This document shows, piece by piece, positions 4,656 through 24,908 of a stretch of DNA of 64,000 nt. The stretch spans positions 1 through 64,000 of IMG/VR virus record IMGVR_UViG_2851976983_000001. One strand, given 5' to 3'. The position numbers and the translations under genes were made by a program. The stretch is from a virus. Lineage: Duplodnaviria; Heunggongvirae; Uroviricota; Caudoviricetes. Within the stretch, counting starts at the first letter, position 1. The number at the start of each line of letters is the position of its first letter. The notes beneath the pieces are model-generated. The model did no database searches, had not been told where the DNA came from, and was given only the letters and a program-made list of their open reading frames with translations.

Positions 4656-5306
4656 ATGGCTAACATTATCATTTCTAAAAAGTCCATCATTGAAGCTGCA
4701 TCTATTGTATCCGACGAGCTGCGCGAAAAAGCAGATCTGGCAACTCAAACATATAACGAACATTATAAAAATGGTACGCACACTAAAGCAGACAAAGCAA
4801 ATATGCAAGCTGCGACCACTAAACTTGCTTACTTCATCAACAACGTTGTAAACGCTGTAGAAGACGAAAAATTATGCTCTGTTTTTTACTATGCGATTAA
4901 AGCAAGCAAACAAGCGCCAGAAGTATTTTTCCGTGATGCAATGACTAATAGTTATTCTCTGGAAAAACTGGTTTATCTGGTTAAATCAATTAAATCTGGT
5001 AAATGCGTTTATTCCATCGCTGATATGTCAGGATCTCGTGTATTCGCTTTAATCGATATGATTAACGACGAGATCGACACGTTCACCAATGGCGCTGTTT
5101 TCGATTTAATGAATGAAGCTAAAAAAGCGTGTGAAATTAAATTGGACGCTGGCTATACTCAAGCCAACCAGTTGATCAATCTTTGCGAACGTCTTGGACT
5201 TGTTGAAAAAGTCAAAGGAGCTGGGAGCGCGAAAGCTGGTACTCAGCAATATCGCTTCATTAAAAATGATTTCTACAATTATTTAGCTGATGCTTTCAAA
5301 GCGTAA
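4656..5306 (+). CDS. hypothetical protein in AT-rich island
   Basis: 216-aa ORF; AT-rich codon usage unlike neighbours; followed by hairpin AGCGCCCATTATGGGCGCT. Confidence 0.5.
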   Translation: MANIIISKKSIIEAASIVSDELREKADLATQTYNEHYKNGTHTKADKANMQAATTKLAYFINNVVNAVEDEKLCSVFYYAIKASKQAPEVFFRDAMTNSYSLEKLVYLVKSIKSGKCVYSIADMSGSRVFALIDMINDEIDTFTNGAVFDLMNEAKKACEIKLDAGYTQANQLINLCERLGLVEKVKGAGSAKAGTQQYRFIKNDFYNYLADAFKA

Positions 5307-8274: not shown

Positions 8275-8586
8275 TCAGGCTATTGCCATCACTGATGCTC
8301 TCTGAATTTCTTGCTGGGCCACGCGGTTAACTTCCATCAAGGCCAGTTCGAGCTGATGTTCCGGCCACATTCTTTGAAACGCCATCCAGCCTTTTCCACG
8401 CTGGCGACGAACATTCATTACATAACGAGTAAAGGTGTTTTTATCGAAAGACACCGCTGTTTCACGGAACAGACGAATAGAGGTTCCATTGGCAACGATG
8501 TCCAGCAAAGTTAATTGAGCAACCAGTGCAGGCTTCTCTTTTCTCTTCTGGTCTTTGTCCAGACCAAGAACCAATGATTTTTTCAT
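8275..8586 (-). CDS. hypothetical protein
   Basis: Track ORF 8275..8616; likely start MKKSLVLGL; AAACAACTTGTTTTCT motif upstream. Confidence 0.45.
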   Translation of the reverse strand: MKKSLVLGLDKDQKRKEKPALVAQLTLLDIVANGTSIRLFRETAVSFDKNTFTRYVMNVRRQRGKGWMAFQRMWPEHQLELALMEVNRVAQQEIQRASVMAIA

Positions 8587-8739
8587 CACAACTCCGTAAA
8601 CAACTTGTTTTCTCAATGGCGTAAATAATACCAGTAAGAAAACGGCTACAAAGCATAATGATCAGGTGCATGGGCGATATGCAGGTTCTTCCCTGCGGCT
8701 ATAGAGAAATTAAGCCAGCAATGCTGGCTTTGGTTGGGA

Positions 8740-9069
8740 TTACGCGAATACCTCAAGAAACTCCTGAACGTCCCAATGCTGGACGAGGTGAAGATAGACC
8801 TTAGAAATCACGTCATTTTCGCTATCGCATGTGAAGTAGTACTTCTGGCTGCGGTTGTATGTGTCCACACAAAATTCGCTCATATCCATAAAGTCAGCAT
8901 CTTCACCCAGGTCGCTGATCATCAAAGCAGGTGCATCATCACGAGTCATCAGCTCCAGCACCCATCTTGAATTAATCAGAGTGGAAGACCAACCTTCCAG
9001 CTCATAGAACTGGTCAAACTCTTTTTGAGTTAATTTCTTGATTTGGTTGATGTCGATATTTGCAAACAT
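8740..9069 (-). CDS. hypothetical protein
   Basis: Track ORF 8740..9090; likely start MFANIDINQ; AAACAACATGTTTTCTTGTTGGTGTTAT motif upstream. Confidence 0.45.
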   Translation of the reverse strand: MFANIDINQIKKLTQKEFDQFYELEGWSSTLINSRWVLELMTRDDAPALMISDLGEDADFMDMSEFCVDTYNRSQKYYFTCDSENDVISKVYLHLVQHWDVQEFLEVFA

Positions 9070-9429
9070 AAAGCAATCCTTAAACAACATGTTTTCTTGT
9101 TGGTGTTATTATCGCAATAACACACAGGCGAAAAAGGATTTTATTCCGGTGAATGTGGTTTTGGCAGTGAGTTTTCAGGTTCAGTATCGAGTACACTTTT
9201 TACATTATTCTGATTTAGTGGCCGAAGGTGGCTGGTGGGCAGAATAATCCTCTCCCCGAAAACCTACTGAAATCGATTGTGACCCGCTGACTGTCTGGCA
9301 CAATTACGCTGTAGTTGGGCATTCAGAGGGAATCCAGCGGTAAGTAAGTTCGCCTGCACGTGAGCGCCTCTCTTCTTCCCGCACATTACAGGTGGGTAGC
9401 CGCAACTCTCCCTCACGCTATACCGGTAC

Positions 9430-9575
9430 GCCGCCGTTCCTGAACCGGCATCGAGCCTTTTCCCGAAATCCACACAGGCAACTCGACCGTTTCCCTGAAA
9501 ACCTCCAGCCGTTCCCCGAAGGCAACCCAGCCGTTTCTGTAGCGGGATGCAGCCTTTTCCCTGTATGGACCGAAG
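9430..9575. repeat. iterated GCCGTTTCCC-type repeats (block copy 2)
   Basis: Six copies (gccgttcctgaa, gccttttcccgaaa, accgtttccctgaaaa, gccgttccccgaa, gccgtttctgtag, gccttttccctgta) at about 22-23 bp spacing. Confidence 0.65.
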
Positions 9576-9739
9576 GCTGACCGTAGGGGTGTTACGGGGG
9601 ATAAAATCAGGAGTTGAATAAATACGAAAAAGGAGGCGACACCCCTCCTTCCCTCCCCACTTATACATACCTGACTTCTTCGCTATACATGTTGTGTTTT
9701 CTTCGTGTTTTATCTGTCTCAACCTCTCTATAGTCGTTA

Positions 9740-10540
9740 ATGCTCACTCCTTCCAGAACGTTCTATACGGCGACTATTTCTGTTGGTGAATTGGGTGTGT
9801 TGTTTTCTCTGTCGGTGTATGTGGTTTCGTTAGTTTTGCGGTGATTCTTCTATGGGGTGTTCTCGTCGTTTTGGTGATTGTTCTTCTCCGTGTATGGAGT
9901 AATGGCAGGTTGGCGATTCCTTTCGTTATTGTGTTTGAGTTGTTTGTCTGGAGTGTGTGAAGGCTTTTGTAGTTATTCGTGTATTGGGTAATGGCGTTTC
10001 CCGTGATTGTTATGTTTCGTGTCTTTTGGGATTGAGAGAAACCTTGCGGTTACAGGCTTCGTTGGGGTTTCAGCGGTTCAGGTGTTTCTTCGCTGTTTGG
10101 GTAATGGCGTGTCGTGGGTATCGCGCGTATGAATGTTTTCGGATTGCCTGTGAAAGTTAGGTTGGTTGTCCGGTAGCCTGGGGAGAAGAGGTGGGTCTTT
10201 TCGGTAGCCTGCCATAAAGAGGTTGGTTGTTTTGGGAATGGCATATGTGTTATTTAGTTGTTTTGTTATGCCTGAAAATAAGTTGTTTATATGGTTGTGT
10301 AACGCAACGGGAACGATTTTGAGCGTGTGTTTTTGTTGGTAGTGTGTTGAGTCGTCTGTGGTGAAAATTGGACGCTGTGGCGCTGTCTGCTGCGTAGAAT
10401 TACGGGTATAAGAAGTGATGTGTGAAAACGTCAATTTTTTAGACCAAATCGGGTGAAAGCGTTGATGTTTCGTTGATCTGTTATTTAGTTGTTTTCTTGA
10501 TTGTATAAACAACTATAACTTATTGATATTTAAGGATGTG
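9740..10540. other. 0.8-kb non-coding region, strongly G+T-rich on the + strand
   Basis: Very few C on the + strand; degenerate internal repeats (GGGTAATGGCGT at 9980 and 10100; GGTAGCCTGG..GAGGTGGG at 10160-10245, related to 7000-7075); track ORFs here are low-complexity artefacts. Confidence 0.6.
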
Positions 10541-10631
10541 ATTGCGGGTATGGAAGGGGAGTAGTGGCGATCAACGGATTCTTATAGAAAAGAATCAAAT
10601 TGTGACCGCCATTATCAATAAGTTACAACCG

Positions 10632-11201
10632 CTAGTTGTTCAGATAAACATTTGGAACACGGACGTAGAAGTTCCTGTCGCCGGTAAGTTCCAGAGTAAT
10701 GTTAATGTCATTACCATTGTCTAGTGTAGCCGTTGCTCTATAGAACTTATCCGTCACCTTGTCCTCTATTGTCACCTTCATACATTTTGGTGCAGTCGAA
10801 CCGTTATTCTCTTTCAGAATAGTTGTCACGAGAGGGCAGGCTGCTTCTTCAAGAGCAACCTCGTCCTTGTGTGGGATGCCGATGAAGATAATCCAAGCCA
10901 GCGACGCAACGATTATGATAAATGGCACTCTGCTGCCTTTTGTAATAGTCGCGCGCTTCCAGAGATAGACAGGCAGGAGGAATACCCCCCATAGAATTGA
11001 AGGTGGTTCACAGCCAGACTCCGATAGAGCCATTCTGTCAGCTACTAACAAACCGATGGTAGTTACACCCCCAATTATAATAGCGTAATTGGTATACTCT
11101 TCCGGCGATACTCCAAAGAAGAAAGGCATGAACGCTAGAATCCACGCATAAATGTTATTCAGAGGTTTTGTTTGTTGGTTCTGGGTTTCCATCACATCCA
11201 T
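10632..11201 (-). CDS. integral membrane protein, hypothetical
   Basis: 189-aa ORF with several hydrophobic helix-length segments. Confidence 0.5.
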   Translation of the reverse strand: MDVMETQNQQTKPLNNIYAWILAFMPFFFGVSPEEYTNYAIIIGGVTTIGLLVADRMALSESGCEPPSILWGVFLLPVYLWKRATITKGSRVPFIIIVASLAWIIFIGIPHKDEVALEEAACPLVTTILKENNGSTAPKCMKVTIEDKVTDKFYRATATLDNGNDINITLELTGDRNFYVRVPNVYLNN

Positions 11202-11353
11202 TCCATCACATAAAAATCGCGTTTATATATTATCAATTTTCTCACTTGTATAACCTAAATACGCATCCGTTTATCAATCCACCTTCCACAAACATCGGCT
11301 TTAGCTATGAAAAATAACAATCTCAAAGTGAAAACCATTATCATAGGAAACGA

Positions 11354-11539
11354 TTAGATGAGATGGTCTAATTCATCATCTATCATTGCTTTAACACTTG
11401 AGTCATTAACCCCGTATTGATTTATGAACCGTTTCAGCTCCGGTGAAAACTGAAGGTAGATATCGTGAGCGTTTTTCACTGTAGGTTCAACGCCACGCAT
11501 TTCAAGCGCCTTTAGTAGATATGAGTCTTCTTTAAGCAT
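11354..11539 (-). CDS. hypothetical small protein (61 aa)
   Basis: ORF in co-directional gene string. Confidence 0.35.
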   Translation of the reverse strand: MLKEDSYLLKALEMRGVEPTVKNAHDIYLQFSPELKRFINQYGVNDSSVKAMIDDELDHLI

Positions 11540-11575
11540 AAATTCTCCGTTGTCTAGTATGAAGCGATTGCCGGA

Positions 11576-11884
11576 TTACCATTGCCAGCACTCTAGCCCT
11601 TCAACGACCGGTGCACCACAATCAAAATGTACAGAGTCAAAGCCTACATCAAGTACTTTCTGAATGTTCGCAATCGCGCCCTCGGATATACCATATCGAC
11701 GCAACTCATCTTTCCAGTCATCGTCCTGTAACCCGGCGTGGACAATGCAACCGTACTCAATTTGTGAAACCCAATCCAGCTCATTGCTTGCGATCATGAA
11801 TCGGCGAGCATCTTCCTCTGATGTATGAGATGAACTGATCAATGCCACCTGGTAGGCTTGGGTAATGTTCAACATTTCAACCAC
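11576..11884 (-). CDS. hypothetical protein (102 aa)
   Basis: ORF with AAACAATTTGTTTTCTT motif upstream (two copies at 11886-11955). Confidence 0.45.
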   Translation of the reverse strand: MVEMLNITQAYQVALISSSHTSEEDARRFMIASNELDWVSQIEYGCIVHAGLQDDDWKDELRRYGISEGAIANIQKVLDVGFDSVHFDCGAPVVEGLECWQW

Positions 11885-12036
11885 TCCAAAACAATTTGTT
11901 TTCTTATGTGGCTTATTATCTCAATCAACAAAAGGTAGAAAACAAATTGTTTTAAGGCTTGTTTAAATCAGGAGGGATTGTGTCTATATGAAAATGCCCA
12001 GCGTGTTGCCGGGCATTGCGAACAGAGGTTGTTTAA

Positions 12037-14070
12037 TTACTTAACCTGGTGGCCAGGTTTAGCACCGACATCCGGGCTTAACAGGAAGATATCTTTCCCG
12101 CCAGGGCCAGCAGCCATCACCATGCCTTCGGAGATACCGAAGCGCATTTTACGCGGAGCCAGGTTAGCCACCATAATGGTGTGACGACCAATCAGTGCCT
12201 GTGGGTCTGGATAAGCAGAACGAATGCCGGAGAAGACATTGCGTTTTTCACCGCCGAGATCCAGCGTCAGGCGTAGCAGTTTGTCAGAACCTTCAACAAA
12301 CTCTGCGTTTTCGATCAACGCCACGCGCAGGTCAACTTTGGCGAAGTCGTCAAAGGTGATGGTTTCCTGAATCGGGTCGTCAGCCAGTGGGCCAGTTACC
12401 GGTGCGGCTGTGGCTTTCACTTCTTCTTTGGATGCTTCCACCAGTGCTTCAACCTGCTTCATATCGATGCGGTTATACAGTGCCTTGAACGGATTCACTT
12501 TATGGCCCAGCAGCGGTTGCTGGATACCATCCCAGGTCAGTTCTGTATTCAGGAATGCTTCTGCACGTTCAGTCAGTTTCGGCAGTACCGGCTTCAGGTA
12601 CGTCATCAGCACGCGGAACAGGTTAATGCCCATAGAGCAAATCGCCTGCAGATCGGCATCGCGTCCTTCCTGCTTCGCCACCACCCACGGAGCCTGTTCA
12701 TCGACATAGCGGTTAGCCAGATCAGCCAGCGCCATGATTTCACGAATCGCTTTACCAAATTCGCGGCTTTCCCATGCTTCACCAATCACTTCAGCGGCAT
12801 CAGTAAAGGTTTTGTACAGTTGCGGGTCAGCCAGTTCGCCTGCCAGCACACCGTCAAAACGCTTATTGATAAAGCCCGCGTTACGGGACGCCAGATTCAC
12901 CACTTTGTTCACGATATCGGCATTCACGCGCTGAACGAAATCCTCCAGGTTGAGATCGATATCATCAATGCGCGAAGAGAGTTTCGCAGTGTAGTAGTAA
13001 CGCAGGCTGTCAGCGTCAAAATGATTCAGCCAGGTGCTGGCTTTAATAAAGGTGCCGCGAGACTTGGACATCTTCGCACCGTTCACCGTCACATAGCCGT
13101 GAACAAATAGGTTAGTCGGCTTGCGGAAGTTGCTGCCTTCCAGCATGGCAGGCCAGAACAGGCTGTGGAAGTAAACGATATCTTTACCGATGAAGTGATA
13201 CAGCTCGGCGGTGGAGTCTTTCTTCCAGTATTCATCGAAGCTGGTGGTATCGCCGCGCTTGTCGCACAGATTCTTGAAGGAACCCATGTAGCCAATCGGC
13301 GCGTCCAGCCAGACGTAGAAGTATTTGCCCGGTGCGTTCGGAATTTCAAAACCGAAGTAAGGTGCGTCACGGGAGATATCCCACTGTTGCAGGCCAGATT
13401 CAAACCACTCCTGCATTTTGTTTGCCACCTGCTCCTGCAACGCACCGCTGCGGGTCCATGCCTGCAACATTTCGCTGAAAGAAGGCAGATCAAAGAAGAA
13501 GTGTTCGGAATCACGCATTACCGGCGTAGCACCAGAAACTACCGATTTCGGCTCGATCAGTTCAGTCGGGCTGTAAGTCGCGCCGCAGACTTCACAGTTA
13601 TCGCCGTATTGATCTGGCGCTTTACATTTAGGGCAGGTGCCTTTTACAAAACGGTCCGGCAGGAACATGCCTTTTTCCGGGTCGTACAGCTGAGAGATAG
13701 TGCGGTTTTTAATAAAACCGTTCTCTTTCAGGCGAGTATAGATAAGCTCAGACAACTGACGGTTCTCTTCGCTGTGCGTCGAGTGATAGTTGTCATAGCT
13801 GATGTTAAAGCCTGCGAAATCAGTCTGGTGTTCCTGACTCATTTCGCCAATCATCTGCTCCGGTGTGATACCAAGCTGCTGTGCTTTCAGCATGATCGGC
13901 GTACCGTGGGCATCGTCGGCACAGATGAAATTAACCTCGTGGCCGCGCATTCGCTGGTAACGAACCCAGACATCAGCCTGGATGTGCTCCAGCATATGGC
14001 CGAGGTGGATTGAGCCGTTAGCGTACGGCAGCGCGCACGTCACCAGAATTTTCTTCGCGACTTGGGTCAT
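12037..14070 (-). CDS. metG: methionine--tRNA ligase (MetRS)
   Basis: Class I aaRS HIGH-type motif ([14 protein letters not shown]), KMSKS, zinc knuckle CPKC...CEVC, C-terminal tRNA-binding domain; near-identical over full length to enterobacterial MetG as I recall it; start set at MTQVAKK (14070), not the 720-aa track ORF. Confidence 0.95.
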
Positions 14071-14227
14071 AGTAGGCATTACTTCTTTGTAGTGAAAAGG
14101 GGCTTGATAGTAACAAAATGGCCTTATGTCTGCCATGTGATAACAGCATTTCTCATAAATGATTAAATGTCGTAGCTGGAGTACACTACAAGGCGACAAT
14201 TGCGCAAATTAAAATAAAGGAGACGGG

Positions 14228-15328
14228 ATGAGCGAGTCCAAATCGCCGGATGCCCTGAGAGCAATGGTAGCCGGTACGCTGGCTAATTTTCAGCACCCAA
14301 CCCTGAAACACAACCTGACTACGCTTAAAGCGTTACACCATGTTGCGTTGATGGATGACACACTGCATGTCGAACTAATCATGCCTTTCGTGTGGAATAA
14401 GCCTTTTGAAGACCTGAAAGAGCAATGTAGTGGTGATCTGCTCCGTATCACTGGCGCAAAGGCTATTGACTGGAAGCTGTCGTACAACATTGCCACGCTT
14501 AAGCGCGTCAAAAACCAACCAGGCATTAATGGCGTTAAGAACATTATCGCCGTCAGCTCAGGCAAAGGCGGCGTGGGTAAATCCTCCACGGCGGTAAACC
14601 TGGCACTGGCGTTGGCTGCTGAAGGTGCGAAAGTTGGTATTTTGGATGCCGATATCTATGGTCCATCAATTCCAACCATGCTGGGCGCGGAAAACCAACG
14701 TCCAACCTCACCTGACGGTACTCACATGGCACCTATCATGTCTCATGGCCTGGCAACCAACTCTATTGGTTATCTGGTCACCGACGACAATGCAATGGTG
14801 TGGCGTGGACCGATGGCCAGCAAGGCGCTGATGCAGATGTTGCAGGAAACTCTATGGCCTGATCTGGACTATCTCGTTCTCGATATGCCGCCGGGCACTG
14901 GTGATATTCAGTTGACGCTGGCGCAGAACATTCCTGTAACTGGTGCGGTTGTGGTAACTACGCCGCAAGACATCGCGCTGATCGATGCGAAGAAAGGCAT
15001 TGTGATGTTCGAAAAAGTCGAAGTGCCGGTACTGGGTATCGTCGAAAACATGAGTGTGCATATTTGCAGTAACTGCGGTCATCACGAGCCAATTTTTGGC
15101 ACCGGTGGCGCACAGAAACTGGCCGAGAAATACAACACGCAGTTGTTAGGCCAAATGCCACTTCATATCTCTCTTCGTGAAGATCTGGATAACGGAACAC
15201 CAACCGTTATTAGTCGTCCAGATAGCGAATTTACGGCTATTTATCGTGACCTCGCAGATCGCGTTGCTGCCCAAATGTATTGGCAAGGTGAAGTAATACC
15301 TGGCGAAATCGCATTCCGCGCAGTGTGA
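14228..15328 (+). CDS. apbC: Fe-S cluster carrier ATPase ApbC/Mrp
   Basis: P-loop SSGKGGVGKSS, CxxC pair (CSNCGHHEP); divergent from metG as in enterobacterial chromosomes. Confidence 0.9.
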   Translation: MSESKSPDALRAMVAGTLANFQHPTLKHNLTTLKALHHVALMDDTLHVELIMPFVWNKPFEDLKEQCSGDLLRITGAKAIDWKLSYNIATLKRVKNQPGINGVKNIIAVSSGKGGVGKSSTAVNLALALAAEGAKVGILDADIYGPSIPTMLGAENQRPTSPDGTHMAPIMSHGLATNSIGYLVTDDNAMVWRGPMASKALMQMLQETLWPDLDYLVLDMPPGTGDIQLTLAQNIPVTGAVVVTTPQDIALIDAKKGIVMFEKVEVPVLGIVENMSVHICSNCGHHEPIFGTGGAQKLAEKYNTQLLGQMPLHISLREDLDNGTPTVISRPDSEFTAIYRDLADRVAAQMYWQGEVIPGEIAFRAV

Positions 15329-15365
15329 TAAAAAGGCGGTGCATTGCACCGCCTAATCAGTTCTC

Positions 15366-15755
15366 CTACATCACGGGACAATCATCAAACTCGCCACTTC
15401 TTGCGTCGTTGATAATGTGAGTGATCACACCAAACACGGCATTGCTGCCCGTGCATCCATCGTCATCCTTTGGCAATGCTTCCTTCTTACCGGTTCTTAA
15501 ATCCTCCAGATGCTGACGTGGATACTTCCGGTATCTTTTTACGCGATATTCCCCATCCAGAGCGCATACAAGCAGAGAACCATCAACCGGGGTAAGTGAG
15601 GAATCGACCACCAGCAATGCACCCTGTAATATTCCCTCACGATGATGACTATCAGCTGCCCTCATGAAGTAGGTCGCTGAAGGATGTCTAATTATCTGCT
15701 GATCAAGAGAAATACGGCTCTCAGCATAATCCGCCGCAGGAGAAGGGAAGCCCAT
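15366..15755 (-). CDS. UmuD'-like S24 peptidase (HumD-like)
   Basis: GFPSPAADY, Ser in DS motif and Lys in RVKRY align with the UmuD catalytic dyad; no N-terminal cleavage arm, so UmuD'-like; LexA box 17 bp upstream. Confidence 0.75.
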   Translation of the reverse strand: MGFPSPAADYAESRISLDQQIIRHPSATYFMRAADSHHREGILQGALLVVDSSLTPVDGSLLVCALDGEYRVKRYRKYPRQHLEDLRTGKKEALPKDDDGCTGSNAVFGVITHIINDARSGEFDDCPVM

Positions 15756-15771
15756 AATACTCGCCTCTTAA

Positions 15772-15791
15772 TACTGTATATGCATACAGTA
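15772..15791. promoter_or_regulatory. LexA (SOS) box
   Basis: TACTGTATATGCATACAGTA matches CTGT-N8-ACAG consensus. Confidence 0.75.
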
Positions 15792-16417
15792 TATGTTGAA
15801 GCTATATATTTTTGAACTCTATCTCTTAAAAAAGATGTTAATAAGATGCTAACTATTGAAAGGCATAAATATATACAATTCCAACAAACGTTATTTTTAA
15901 CAAATTTTTTCTCTCCGTTGACTTTTGCGAAAGCCTTGTCTGGCCTAAATTGCGCGGAAGCTACTTTTTCCTTACAGAGTTATCCACAGAGTTATGCACT
16001 TGCATGTATAACCTATACACACTATCTTAATTCGCAAGACACTGATGTTGCGGTATTGAAGGTTCATTGGGTTAAAAATAGACATTAAAAAGCCCAGTTG
16101 ACTAGGCTGGGCTTTTTAAAAGGAAACAGAGTTTGCGGCTCTGTTCCTGAGCCATAAGTATCTGGCGACTGAATTAAGATTAACCGAATGTACTGGATTC
16201 ATCAAGAAACGTTGAGTGGTCATACCAGGTAATAATGGCCATTTACTAAACATCGTTGTTCTCAAAGAAGATTTAAGTCCAGGTTTTTGGTGACTCTAAA
16301 ACCTTACCTTAACTCGAAATCGTGCCGTAAGTATCTGGCGACTACAGATATTGCAACTGCAAAGGCAAGCCCAAAGGTATTTGCAGCTAGGCGCGATAAA
16401 ACTAAGTGAGGCCTGTT

Positions 16418-16501
16418 ATGGTTAACTTACTGTTCAAAATCGTGCCGCCGATGTTCGCGATTATCAAAGCGATCATTGAGTACGTAAACCAGCGTCCATA
16501 A
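16418..16501 (+). CDS. possible small hydrophobic peptide (27 aa)
   Basis: Hand translation MVNLLFKIVPPMFAIIKAIIEYVNQRP; followed by hairpin at 16510-16545; weak. Confidence 0.2.
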   Translation: MVNLLFKIVPPMFAIIKAIIEYVNQRP

Positions 16502-16556
16502 CGCTAGTTGCTACAGGCCCCATCAAGAGCATGGGGCCTCTTTATCGTACTATTGC

Positions 16557-17183
16557 TTATTTTTTACGGACTGAGTTGTTCACTGCTCTGGCAATCTTCT
16601 CCCGCAATTGCTGCGTTCCGTGATACGTAACCGCAATATCCCGCAACTCGTTCACTAGTTCTCGAATTTGGTGATCTTTAAGCTCATTATTTGGGTGATT
16701 GGTAACAACTCTGGTTAATTCCCCCTTGTCTTTTGCTCTTACGTATGCAGCTCTTGTGCATTCGACCCATGTATTACCACCTACATTAACTTCGTAGATT
16801 AGGCTGGACTTATCTGTCAATTCGGAACAAATACGGGCCGTGGTCTGGCAACTAGAGCATTCGCAGTTATCGCGGAAACCGTGATCTACCGGTCGAGAAA
16901 GAGGTTTAACTTTTTCATCCAACTTCATCACAGCATCGTGATAAGCGTTCCAGCCGTCATCTTTACCAAGTTGATAAATCTCTGAAGGCTCCATGTAGTC
17001 TATATCGCAACCATCTTCATCTGATCTATCTGGTCGTTTCCCTGGTAATCGCTCATAAAAACGATTTCTGTCTCGACGTTCGGCTCTCAGTGCTAACGCA
17101 AGAAGTTGCTCAAGCGAGGTATTCGCACCAGCAATAATTTCATTGAGAATATCTTCTGTGAGATCTTTCGCTACCGTGCTCAT
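16557..17183 (-). CDS. hypothetical protein (208 aa)
   Basis: Last gene of a tightly packed minus-strand string 20614 to 16557. Confidence 0.5.
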   Translation of the reverse strand: MSTVAKDLTEDILNEIIAGANTSLEQLLALALRAERRDRNRFYERLPGKRPDRSDEDGCDIDYMEPSEIYQLGKDDGWNAYHDAVMKLDEKVKPLSRPVDHGFRDNCECSSCQTTARICSELTDKSSLIYEVNVGGNTWVECTRAAYVRAKDKGELTRVVTNHPNNELKDHQIRELVNELRDIAVTYHGTQQLREKIARAVNNSVRKK

Positions 17184-17563
17184 TTATCTCTCTCAGTATG
17201 TTGCGATGGCGTAAATTTGACGACATCAAATATTTTGGATGGCATCAACTTTATCCGCGAGCTTAGTTCGGCTCTTCTCTGTAATGCGGTTAATAATGTT
17301 TTCGTTCTGACGCCTTCGTGTATCCTCATCCCTGGCACAAGGACTACATCGCAGGGGAGATGCTCAGGTGACAAATCATTTTGGGCATCACCAATAAGTC
17401 GTGTAATCTCTCTTTCAAGCCGACCGCCTAGCTCTGTTTTAGTGCAATGTTCTGACCAATCGCCAGCCTCAAGCAGCGCGAGAATGCTTAAAATATCGTC
17501 CAATAGATCAGTGGTATTATCGACTTCCTTCTGAAGCTCACCGGCTACTGATTTATGCATCAT
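17180..17563 (-). CDS. hypothetical protein (127 aa)
   Basis: ORF overlapping neighbours by 4 nt (ATGA). Confidence 0.45.
   Translation of the reverse strand: MMHKSVAGELQKEVDNTTDLLDDILSILALLEAGDWSEHCTKTELGGRLEREITRLIGDAQNDLSPEHLPCDVVLVPGMRIHEGVRTKTLLTALQRRAELSSRIKLMPSKIFDVVKFTPSQHTERDK

Positions 17564-21537: not shown

Positions 21538-24908
<3,371 letters not shown>

Follow-up and report, generated by a model that had tools for sequence, protein, structure and literature searches.

The metG–apbC module and its neighbouring direct repeats in an SSU5-supergroup phage-plasmid of Escherichia

Why would a mobile replicon carry metG, the full-length gene of methionyl-tRNA synthetase (MetRS), together with the Fe-S carrier gene apbC, and what do the direct repeats lying close to them do? 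These questions are raised by the window analyzed here, that is, the whole stretch of 64,000 nt at positions 1 to 64,000 of the IMG/VR virus record IMGVR_UViG_2851976983_000001. The explanation that accounts best for the locus as a whole, and in which we have high though not complete confidence, is that an accessory slot of an SSU5-supergroup phage-plasmid holds an old capture of metG and apbC, that its metG has undergone gene conversion, and that the repeats belong to a separate module.

The phage-plasmid and its metG–apbC cargo

The window is 100% identical to p503829_100, a circular plasmid of 100,470 bp from E. coli 503829, the annotation of which includes a RepB initiator gene and ParB-family genes. 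Salmonella phage SSU5 matched window 36000-60000 (24 kb) with 86.9% identity over 57% of it, and phage-type genes flank metG, apbC and the adjoining umuD'-like gene humD on both the left and the right. The window belongs to the Escherichia/Shigella (pSLy3/pWPMR2) type of SSU5-supergroup phage-plasmids (bioRxiv 10.1101/2025.09.12.675607), and the initial annotation of this locus was correct in placing host-type genes in a mobile backbone between phage-type blocks.

We searched for the 6.5-kb block containing metG, apbC and humD (11000-17500). Among PLSDB plasmids, 79 had it at a coverage of at least 80%, as did 102 of the 5426 complete E. coli genomes. The phage records Cyrano, CMS-2020a and PhiR41_1 carry it too, and its position was constant among the plasmids, genomes and phage records. 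Cyrano is 108,379 bp long, and the plasmid pLF82, which is equal in length, matches the block as well. The same genomes contained 217 plasmid-borne metG places. Plasmid-borne metG is thus present in about 4% of complete E. coli genomes, which could be relevant to surveillance.

The features of the cargo segment are as follows.

11991-12016, minus strand: hairpin with a T-run 3' of metG, read from the sequence; inside the cargo segment
12037-14070, minus strand: metG, full-length MetRS of 677 aa, starting MTQVAKK
14071-14227, no strand: control region shared by the divergent metG and apbC, apparently captured along with the genes
14228-15328, plus strand: apbC/mrp, Fe-S cluster carrier ATPase of 366 aa
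15334-15354, minus strand: terminator-like hairpin between the convergent apbC and humD, at the right end of the cargo segment

The identities of the two genes, as initially annotated, were confirmed with curated protein models. MetRS scored 1017.7 bits against the equivalog NF001100 (cut-off 587; residues 4-677) and 162 bits against the C-terminal tRNA-binding/dimerisation domain TIGR00399. Its translation contains the HIGH motif in the form HLGH, the KMSKS motif and a Zn-knuckle (CPKC...CEVC). The 720-aa open reading frame (ORF) listed for metG results from a start at an upstream TTG; the true start is MTQVAKK. ApbC scored 759.3 bits against the equivalog NF008669 (cut-off 348), and its deviant Walker A (GKGGVGKS) and CXXC (CSNC) motifs can be read in the translation. 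The divergent order of the two genes is that of K-12, and a single alignment spans both of them in most of the loci taken from 80 species, in agreement with the enterobacterial chromosomal arrangement recognised in the initial annotation.

The window MetRS differs from that of K-12 at 10 amino acids, with a nonsynonymous rate (dN) of 0.007 and a synonymous rate (dS) of 0.27. For apbC the values are 0.035 and 1.5 (ratio 0.023), so that dN/dS against K-12 is about 0.02-0.03 for both genes alike. Among the phage-plasmid copies every gene was intact, and the ratio of nonsynonymous to synonymous polymorphism (pN/pS) was 0.010 for metG and 0.007 for apbC. Because the protein sequences are almost constant, both genes appear to be under strong purifying selection and to be in use. 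Eight conservative MetRS substitutions (S112T, S151A, S275T, V276T, S319T, V442I, R538K and A554T) are found in seven of nine phage-plasmid copies. It should be noted that apbC travels together with metG under equally strong selection.

Homology to K-12 and to the 80 species representatives runs from 12036 to 15324-15329, that is, between the two stop codons. The terminators beyond these stop codons are unrelated to the chromosomal ones; the sequence 3' of metG is different in K-12, and the hairpin at 11991-12016 is not the K-12 metG terminator. Within the control region, only about 47 nt adjoining metG align with E. coli, and a full-length alignment was obtained with the Citrobacter freundii complex only (about 77%). 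In the related plasmid pTB212, a DUF4145 gene replaces metG and apbC between the same flanking genes, a DUF5983-type gene and humD. In the comparison with pTB212, homology of the backbone is lost at about 11985 and starts again at about 15366, the stop codon of humD, and no repeats were found at these two borders. Judging from these alignments, the metG–apbC module occupies a swappable slot for accessory genes.

We also considered a transposon or an insertion bounded by direct repeats. This candidate was rejected, as humD has the two repeat copies, which are 173 bp apart, on its right side only, and the borders of the cargo are free of such repeats. In one relative, NZ_CP047004.1, the control region shared by metG and apbC holds an inserted ISKox3 (ISL3-family) transposase. 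A 61-aa ORF located two genes left of metG (window 11357-11539, minus strand) gave a weak Pfam match to the T7 Gp5.9 RecBCD inhibitor family (E = 0.006; 16.9 bits, below the threshold of 24.5).

Mosaic history and role of the second metG

To follow the history of the module, we compared the nine phage-plasmid copies of metG with four E. coli chromosomal references. The window metG is 94.3% identical to that of K-12, and E. coli and Escherichia sp. E1V33 are just as far apart. The window apbC is 82.4% identical to that of K-12, and the apbC genes of K-12 and E1V33 share 90% identity. No donor of apbC was found among the 80 species loci, the best of which reached 82.7%.

Among the nine copies, metG is much more variable than its neighbours. 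It has 209 segregating sites in 2031 nt, at 206 of which one of the alleles occurs among the four E. coli chromosomes as well, and just 26 differences from K-12 are fixed in all nine copies. The four-gamete minimum of Hudson and Kaplan (Rm) was 38 recombination events. Between the window and the relative RHB03, identity is 99.9% for apbC and 100% for humD, against only 97.1% for metG. Chromosomal alleles are involved at 55 of the 58 metG sites that differ in this pair, and at 21 of them both alleles are chromosomal polymorphisms. There are 16 sites at which the phage-plasmids are fixed for an allele that none of the four chromosomes has; all of them are at the gene ends, nt 6-477 and 1863-2031. 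Moreover, pECOH89 has no non-E. coli allele at metG nt 601-1800. A composite of the non-E. coli metG alleles was about 90% identical to E. coli and 84-86% identical to other genera, and thus these alleles do not point to another sampled genus.

By these comparisons the metG–apbC module is a mosaic, and the pattern fits repeated conversion of the internal part of the plasmid metG by the chromosomal metG of the host. An enterobacterial chromosomal metG–apbC pair would have been acquired in the distant past and cut down to the two genes and their shared control region. The captured metG would then exchange parts of its interior with the chromosomal copy of its host through homologous recombination, which would keep it about 94% E. 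coli-like and make it hypervariable among elements, while its ends, which adjoin non-homologous DNA, would be spared from conversion. The old sequence of apbC and of the spacer may have been kept because both are too diverged to recombine. As the plasmid copy would keep swapping tracts with the chromosomal gene, typing of plasmid versus chromosomal metG alleles by short reads would be unreliable.

Several points weigh against this account. The inference of conversion draws on nine phage-plasmid copies and four chromosomal references, and the role of apbC has no explanation in it. Moreover, simple mutation of an E. coli-like ancestor would also produce part of the signal that one of the two alleles is the E. 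coli base. However, simple mutation fails to explain the roughly 30-fold excess of differences in metG over its flanks and the shared chromosomal polymorphisms.

Two linked readings follow from the locus, and we hold them jointly to be possible at somewhat less than an even chance. In one, the phage-plasmid metG would be a standing recombination partner that shuttles alleles of an essential gene between Escherichia and Shigella strains; in the other, the repeat pair would mark an unannotated toxin–antitoxin (TA)-like family of type I. If the former is true, the shuttled metG alleles would include tolerance-associated ones, and the reported hypervariability of metG would be the footprint of that traffic.

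Two database records are mentioned here for their metG sequences. Pseudomonas phage Y5 (OQ572407.1, 21501-22133) has 75% identity to internal metG (window about 13050-13685), which hints at another phage-borne metG-like sequence. The record CP170191.1, labelled as the chromosome of 'Enterobacter hormaechei B56', has a metG–apbC pair 100% identical to that of E. coli K-12, and its label is therefore probably wrong.

We then weighed other explanations for the presence of metG. The initial annotation had suggested that the locus might be a chromosome-plasmid cointegration junction and had named mis-assembly as a further possibility, and typical chromosomal housekeeping genes in their chromosomal arrangement would indeed be expected if a recent cointegration had occurred or if contigs from the chromosome and the plasmid had been joined during assembly. 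However, no chromosomal flank is carried, as homology ends at the stop codons, and the genes diverge by 6% (metG) to 18% (apbC) from all E. coli chromosomes. Because the block recurs at the same place in plasmids, genomes and phage records, with identical placement in about 80 closed plasmids as well as the phage records, neither event is a realistic explanation, and we give them a negligible probability. The chromosome of host 503829, where the initial annotation had proposed to look for a second metG, has its own intact copy of 2034 nt, located with apbC at the normal locus and 94.1% identical to the plasmid copy. The 5426 genomes contain 5424 chromosomal metG places, about one each, with 93.4-95.2% identity to the window copy. 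As the chromosomes carry about one metG each, no integrated forms were seen among these genomes, and no loss of chromosomal metG in carriers was seen either. These numbers also bear on essential-gene addiction, in which the chromosomal metG of carriers would be lost or crippled and the element could no longer be lost. MetRS is essential and the element copy looks fully functional, as addiction would demand, but the host keeps its own chromosomal metG, and the candidate TA locus on the element could itself serve maintenance. Addiction is thus very improbable.

It is also conceivable that the plasmid MetRS is a target-replacement resistance enzyme, like MupA against mupirocin, directed against a MetRS inhibitor or a toxin acting on Met-tRNA charging, or that it boosts translation for the phage during lytic growth. 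The eight conservative substitutions shared by seven of the nine copies and held by strong purifying selection would agree with such a function. Resistant plasmid-borne aminoacyl-tRNA synthetases are a known category, and the NCBIfam models of MupA and MupB gave distant matches to the window MetRS. However, the substitutions are few and conservative, and pECOH89 has lost four of them by conversion without evident harm. To our knowledge, no MetRS inhibitor is known from this niche. In addition, PMC12452169 ascribes a tolerance/persister phenotype to metG and not resistance to an inhibitor. We regard this function as unlikely.

Dosage is an idea that agrees with the literature. As cited in PMC12452169, Tam et al. 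(2024; medRxiv 10.1101/2024.10.27.24316207) tied the metG of the phage-plasmid pWPMR2 to antimicrobial survival in epidemic Shigella sonnei and are reported to have found that its expression creates a subpopulation predisposed to gain cephalosporin resistance. PMC12452169 also describes metG as 'multi- and highly variable' in this element family. Tam et al. are likewise cited in bioRxiv 10.1101/2025.09.12.675607. Following these reports, an auxiliary MetRS may alter the dosage or composition of cellular MetRS and so give rise to a drug-surviving subpopulation. Of the addiction or dosage module proposed in the initial annotation, the former part is not supported, given the intact chromosomal gene of 503829, and the latter is compatible with PMC12452169. 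A second metG borne by a phage-plasmid is already known, according to PMC12452169 on Tam et al. (2024). The conversion mosaic, the swappable slot and the TA-like account of the repeats were not found stated in the literature searched, the primary text of Tam et al. excepted. These additions are modest, and for its family the element is an ordinary one.

The direct repeats beyond humD

The initial annotation reported 16-bp direct repeats and placed them at the right border of the region. The repeat exists, in fact as 20 nt with one mismatch, GCC(A/G)TAAGTATCTGGCGACT, with an exact 16-nt core at 16155-16170 and 16328-16343. However, it is not a border of the metG insert: both copies are to the right of humD, and the same kind of pair, with concerted changes, occurs in plasmids that have no metG at this locus. 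The features around the repeats are as follows.

16086-16171, minus strand: candidate antisense small RNA (sRNA) of about 86 nt, with a 5' tail complementary to copy 1, then a hairpin and lastly a terminator (16091-16108)
16151-16170, plus strand: repeat copy 1, the complement of which is the 5' end of the candidate sRNA
16324-16343, plus strand: repeat copy 2, within the peptide mRNA leader and 75 nt ahead of the ATG
16418-16501, plus strand: unannotated ORF of 27 aa, MVNLLFKIVPPMFAIIKAIIEYVNQRP, with a GAGG Shine-Dalgarno sequence at 16408-16411; candidate type I toxin
16515-16539, plus strand: terminator-like hairpin, from sequence, closing the peptide transcript

A conserved promoter motif, TTGnnG-17-TAAnnT, is found at 16177-16205 ahead of the candidate sRNA. 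The peptide is encoded in 90 plasmids and two phage records and is annotated in only one record among those listed. In pECOH89 its ORF departs from that of the window at nine positions: six third-position changes are synonymous, two others alter an amino acid, and the remaining one turns the ATG start codon into GTG. Divergent versions of the locus occur in plasmids of Enterobacter, Citrobacter and Klebsiella without metG at that locus, and the repeat pairs of these versions differ in sequence (AATGTATCTGGCGACT, AATGTATCTGGCAGC and GTTGTTAACCGGCGAC).

We aligned copy 1 and copy 2 as an intermolecular helix across four lineages. Eight of the 26 pairs change on both sides with pairing kept, and the observed covariation score was reached by none of 500 shuffles. 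Going from copy 1 to copy 2 of one locus, all differences in the duplex are A>G or C>T and so run the way that gives G·U pairs. The hairpins of the candidate sRNA have six compensatory pairs. These observations fit a type I TA-like locus in which the 5' end of the candidate sRNA would pair over about 20 nt with the leader of the 27-aa peptide mRNA. The divergent sRNA of about 86 nt and its target would then form a module separate from the metG cargo, and this TA-like locus may contribute to the maintenance of the element. If true, it would represent an unannotated type I TA-like family with a trans-acting sRNA, distributed on phage-plasmids and plasmids of Escherichia, Enterobacter, Citrobacter and Klebsiella.

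The repeats could instead be DNA-level elements, such as protein-binding sites or iterons, or scars of the recombination or transposition that delivered the cargo. Over 16 nt the two copies, which lie 173 bp apart, are identical, and a shared DNA-binding protein could also yield concerted change. However, both copies are on one side of the cargo, beyond humD, and the pair is kept where metG is absent from the locus. The A>G/C>T direction retains G·U pairing between the antisense RNA of copy 1 and the mRNA of copy 2. Furthermore, on the minus strand copy 1 leads into a hairpin that shows compensatory changes and then into a terminator, and it is preceded by conserved -35 and -10 elements, while copy 2 stands ahead of a conserved short ORF with a Shine-Dalgarno sequence. 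A purely DNA-level role thus has only a small probability.

The type I TA-like interpretation nevertheless has points against it. The identity of the two repeats could also be upheld at the DNA level, and no known toxin family matches the peptide: neither it nor its relatives matched a family in Pfam (E ≤ 10) or NCBIfam (E ≤ 0.01), and a BLASTP comparison with LdrD found no Ldr-like similarity. Rfam gave nothing above threshold in 8500-17500. The match of the candidate sRNA to AgrB, the antitoxin sRNA of dinQ, remained below the gathering score (27.6 bits against 40; E = 0.25), and the matches to MIR395 and RNAI were at chance level. The locus does not belong to any curated toxin or sRNA family. 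A convincing promoter for the peptide mRNA could not be placed, either by the promoter scan or by eye, and a LexA box, as in dinQ and tisB, was looked for at the peptide gene and not found.

The Enterobacter, Citrobacter and Klebsiella loci have two tandem small ORFs, MQMLLLFLKLAHP... followed by MVSLLLKILPP..., at 4880-5083, 4890-5085 and 1392-1580 of their loci. Escherichia elements have the second peptide type only, fused to the conserved leader.

Neighbouring features and comparison with known systems

Between the cargo and the repeat module lies humD, for which two features were recorded.

15366-15755, minus strand: humD, S24/UmuD'-type, pre-processed UmuD' homologue of 129 aa
15772-15791, no strand: palindromic LexA box TACTGTATATGCATACAGTA, 16 nt from the humD start codon

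The protein scored 219.8 bits against the HumD equivalog NF051876 (cut-off 120). Its N-terminus reads MGFPSPAADY, and because its second residue falls, in alignments, on residue 1 of the chain in the UmuD' crystal and on residue 25 of full-length UmuD, HumD lacks the N-terminal cleavage arm and corresponds to a ready-processed UmuD'. Its start thus matches the Cys24/Gly25 cleavage point of UmuD. The initial annotation had already described a umuD'-like gene without the arm and a LexA box upstream of it, and both descriptions hold. The box overlaps the -10 element of a predicted promoter-like site of humD (15816-15788, minus strand), and its position is kept in nine related phage-plasmids, pTB212 and P1. 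The humD gene is of the P1 type and is probably repressed by LexA, which would place it under SOS control. The window contains four CTGT-N8-ACAG sites, with 0.85 expected. A second LexA-type box, CACTGTATAAGTAAACAGTA, is located at window 46944-46963, about 27 nt upstream of a 367-aa gene (45814-46917, minus strand). This gene looks like a tyrosine recombinase, which suggests SOS control of a site-specific recombinase.

Opposite humD, an 80-aa ORF (15846-16088, plus strand) is annotated in one relative only; it has no similarity to P1 Lxr and no family match in Pfam or NCBIfam. Inside it is a tandem 12-nt repeat, ACAGAGTTATCC/ACAGAGTTATGC, at 15974-15997, within which a perfect DnaA-box sequence, TTATCCACA, is found at 15981-15989.

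Farther to the left, window 9070-10632 is a region of about 1.5 kb without a RefSeq gene or a convincing ORF. It is strongly G+T-rich on the plus strand (GC skew +0.25, AT skew about -0.2) and has degenerate dispersed repeats only; neither tandem repeats nor a tRNA nor an Rfam match was found in it.

To the right, IS100 (istA/istB) occupies window positions of about 21604-23405, between pseudogene fragments of a DNA modification methylase and an AAA ATPase, with a partial DUF551 gene nearby. The 100-kb copy p503829_100, which bears IS100 and pseudogenes, may be a decayed phage-plasmid. Its close relatives Cyrano and PhiR41_1 were deposited as phages.

The element as a whole resembles its pWPMR2/pSLy3-type relatives, such as pECOH89 and pLF82 (phage Cyrano), in the backbone, in the metG–apbC–humD block and in the position of that block. 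The block is 96.8-98.5% identical to those of the listed E. coli plasmids and 97.8% identical to those of both the S. sonnei plasmid p38 and phage Cyrano; in pECOH89, metG, apbC and humD are all annotated too. Unlike the pWPMR2-type relatives, p503829_100 is shorter (100 kb) and has IS100 splitting a methylase gene, and its MetRS has two substitutions, S411G and A668V, in addition to those of the relatives.

MupA and MupB, which are isoleucyl-tRNA synthetases (IleRS), are likewise second, mobile copies of an essential class I aminoacyl-tRNA synthetase. However, they are highly diverged from the host enzyme, whereas the window MetRS is about 99% identical to the protein of its host.

A HumD with a LexA site is already known from P1. 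The P1 protein has the same length of 129 aa, the same start at the UmuD' N-terminus and 91% amino acid identity to the window HumD, and the LexA site annotated for its gene is at an equal distance from the start codon. The P1 record states, for P1 HumD only, that it functionally complements E. coli UmuD'. The surroundings differ, as humD of P1 neighbours phd-doc and lxr.

The candidate sRNA/peptide locus is built like the known loci dinQ/agrB, zorO/orzO and tisB/istR-1, each with a small peptide ORF behind a long leader. As in loci of the dinQ/agrB type, the sRNA would be on the opposite strand, about 170 bp away, with about 20 nt of complementarity that derives from a direct DNA repeat. The candidate sRNA, here recognised from sequence alone, also shares with those of the dinQ/agrB type the order of its parts, with a pairing tail at the 5' end, a hairpin next and a terminator last. 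The locus differs from all three systems in having no sequence homology to known toxin or antitoxin families. Unlike dinQ and tisB, its peptide gene is without a LexA box, and its relatives include loci with two tandem peptide ORFs.

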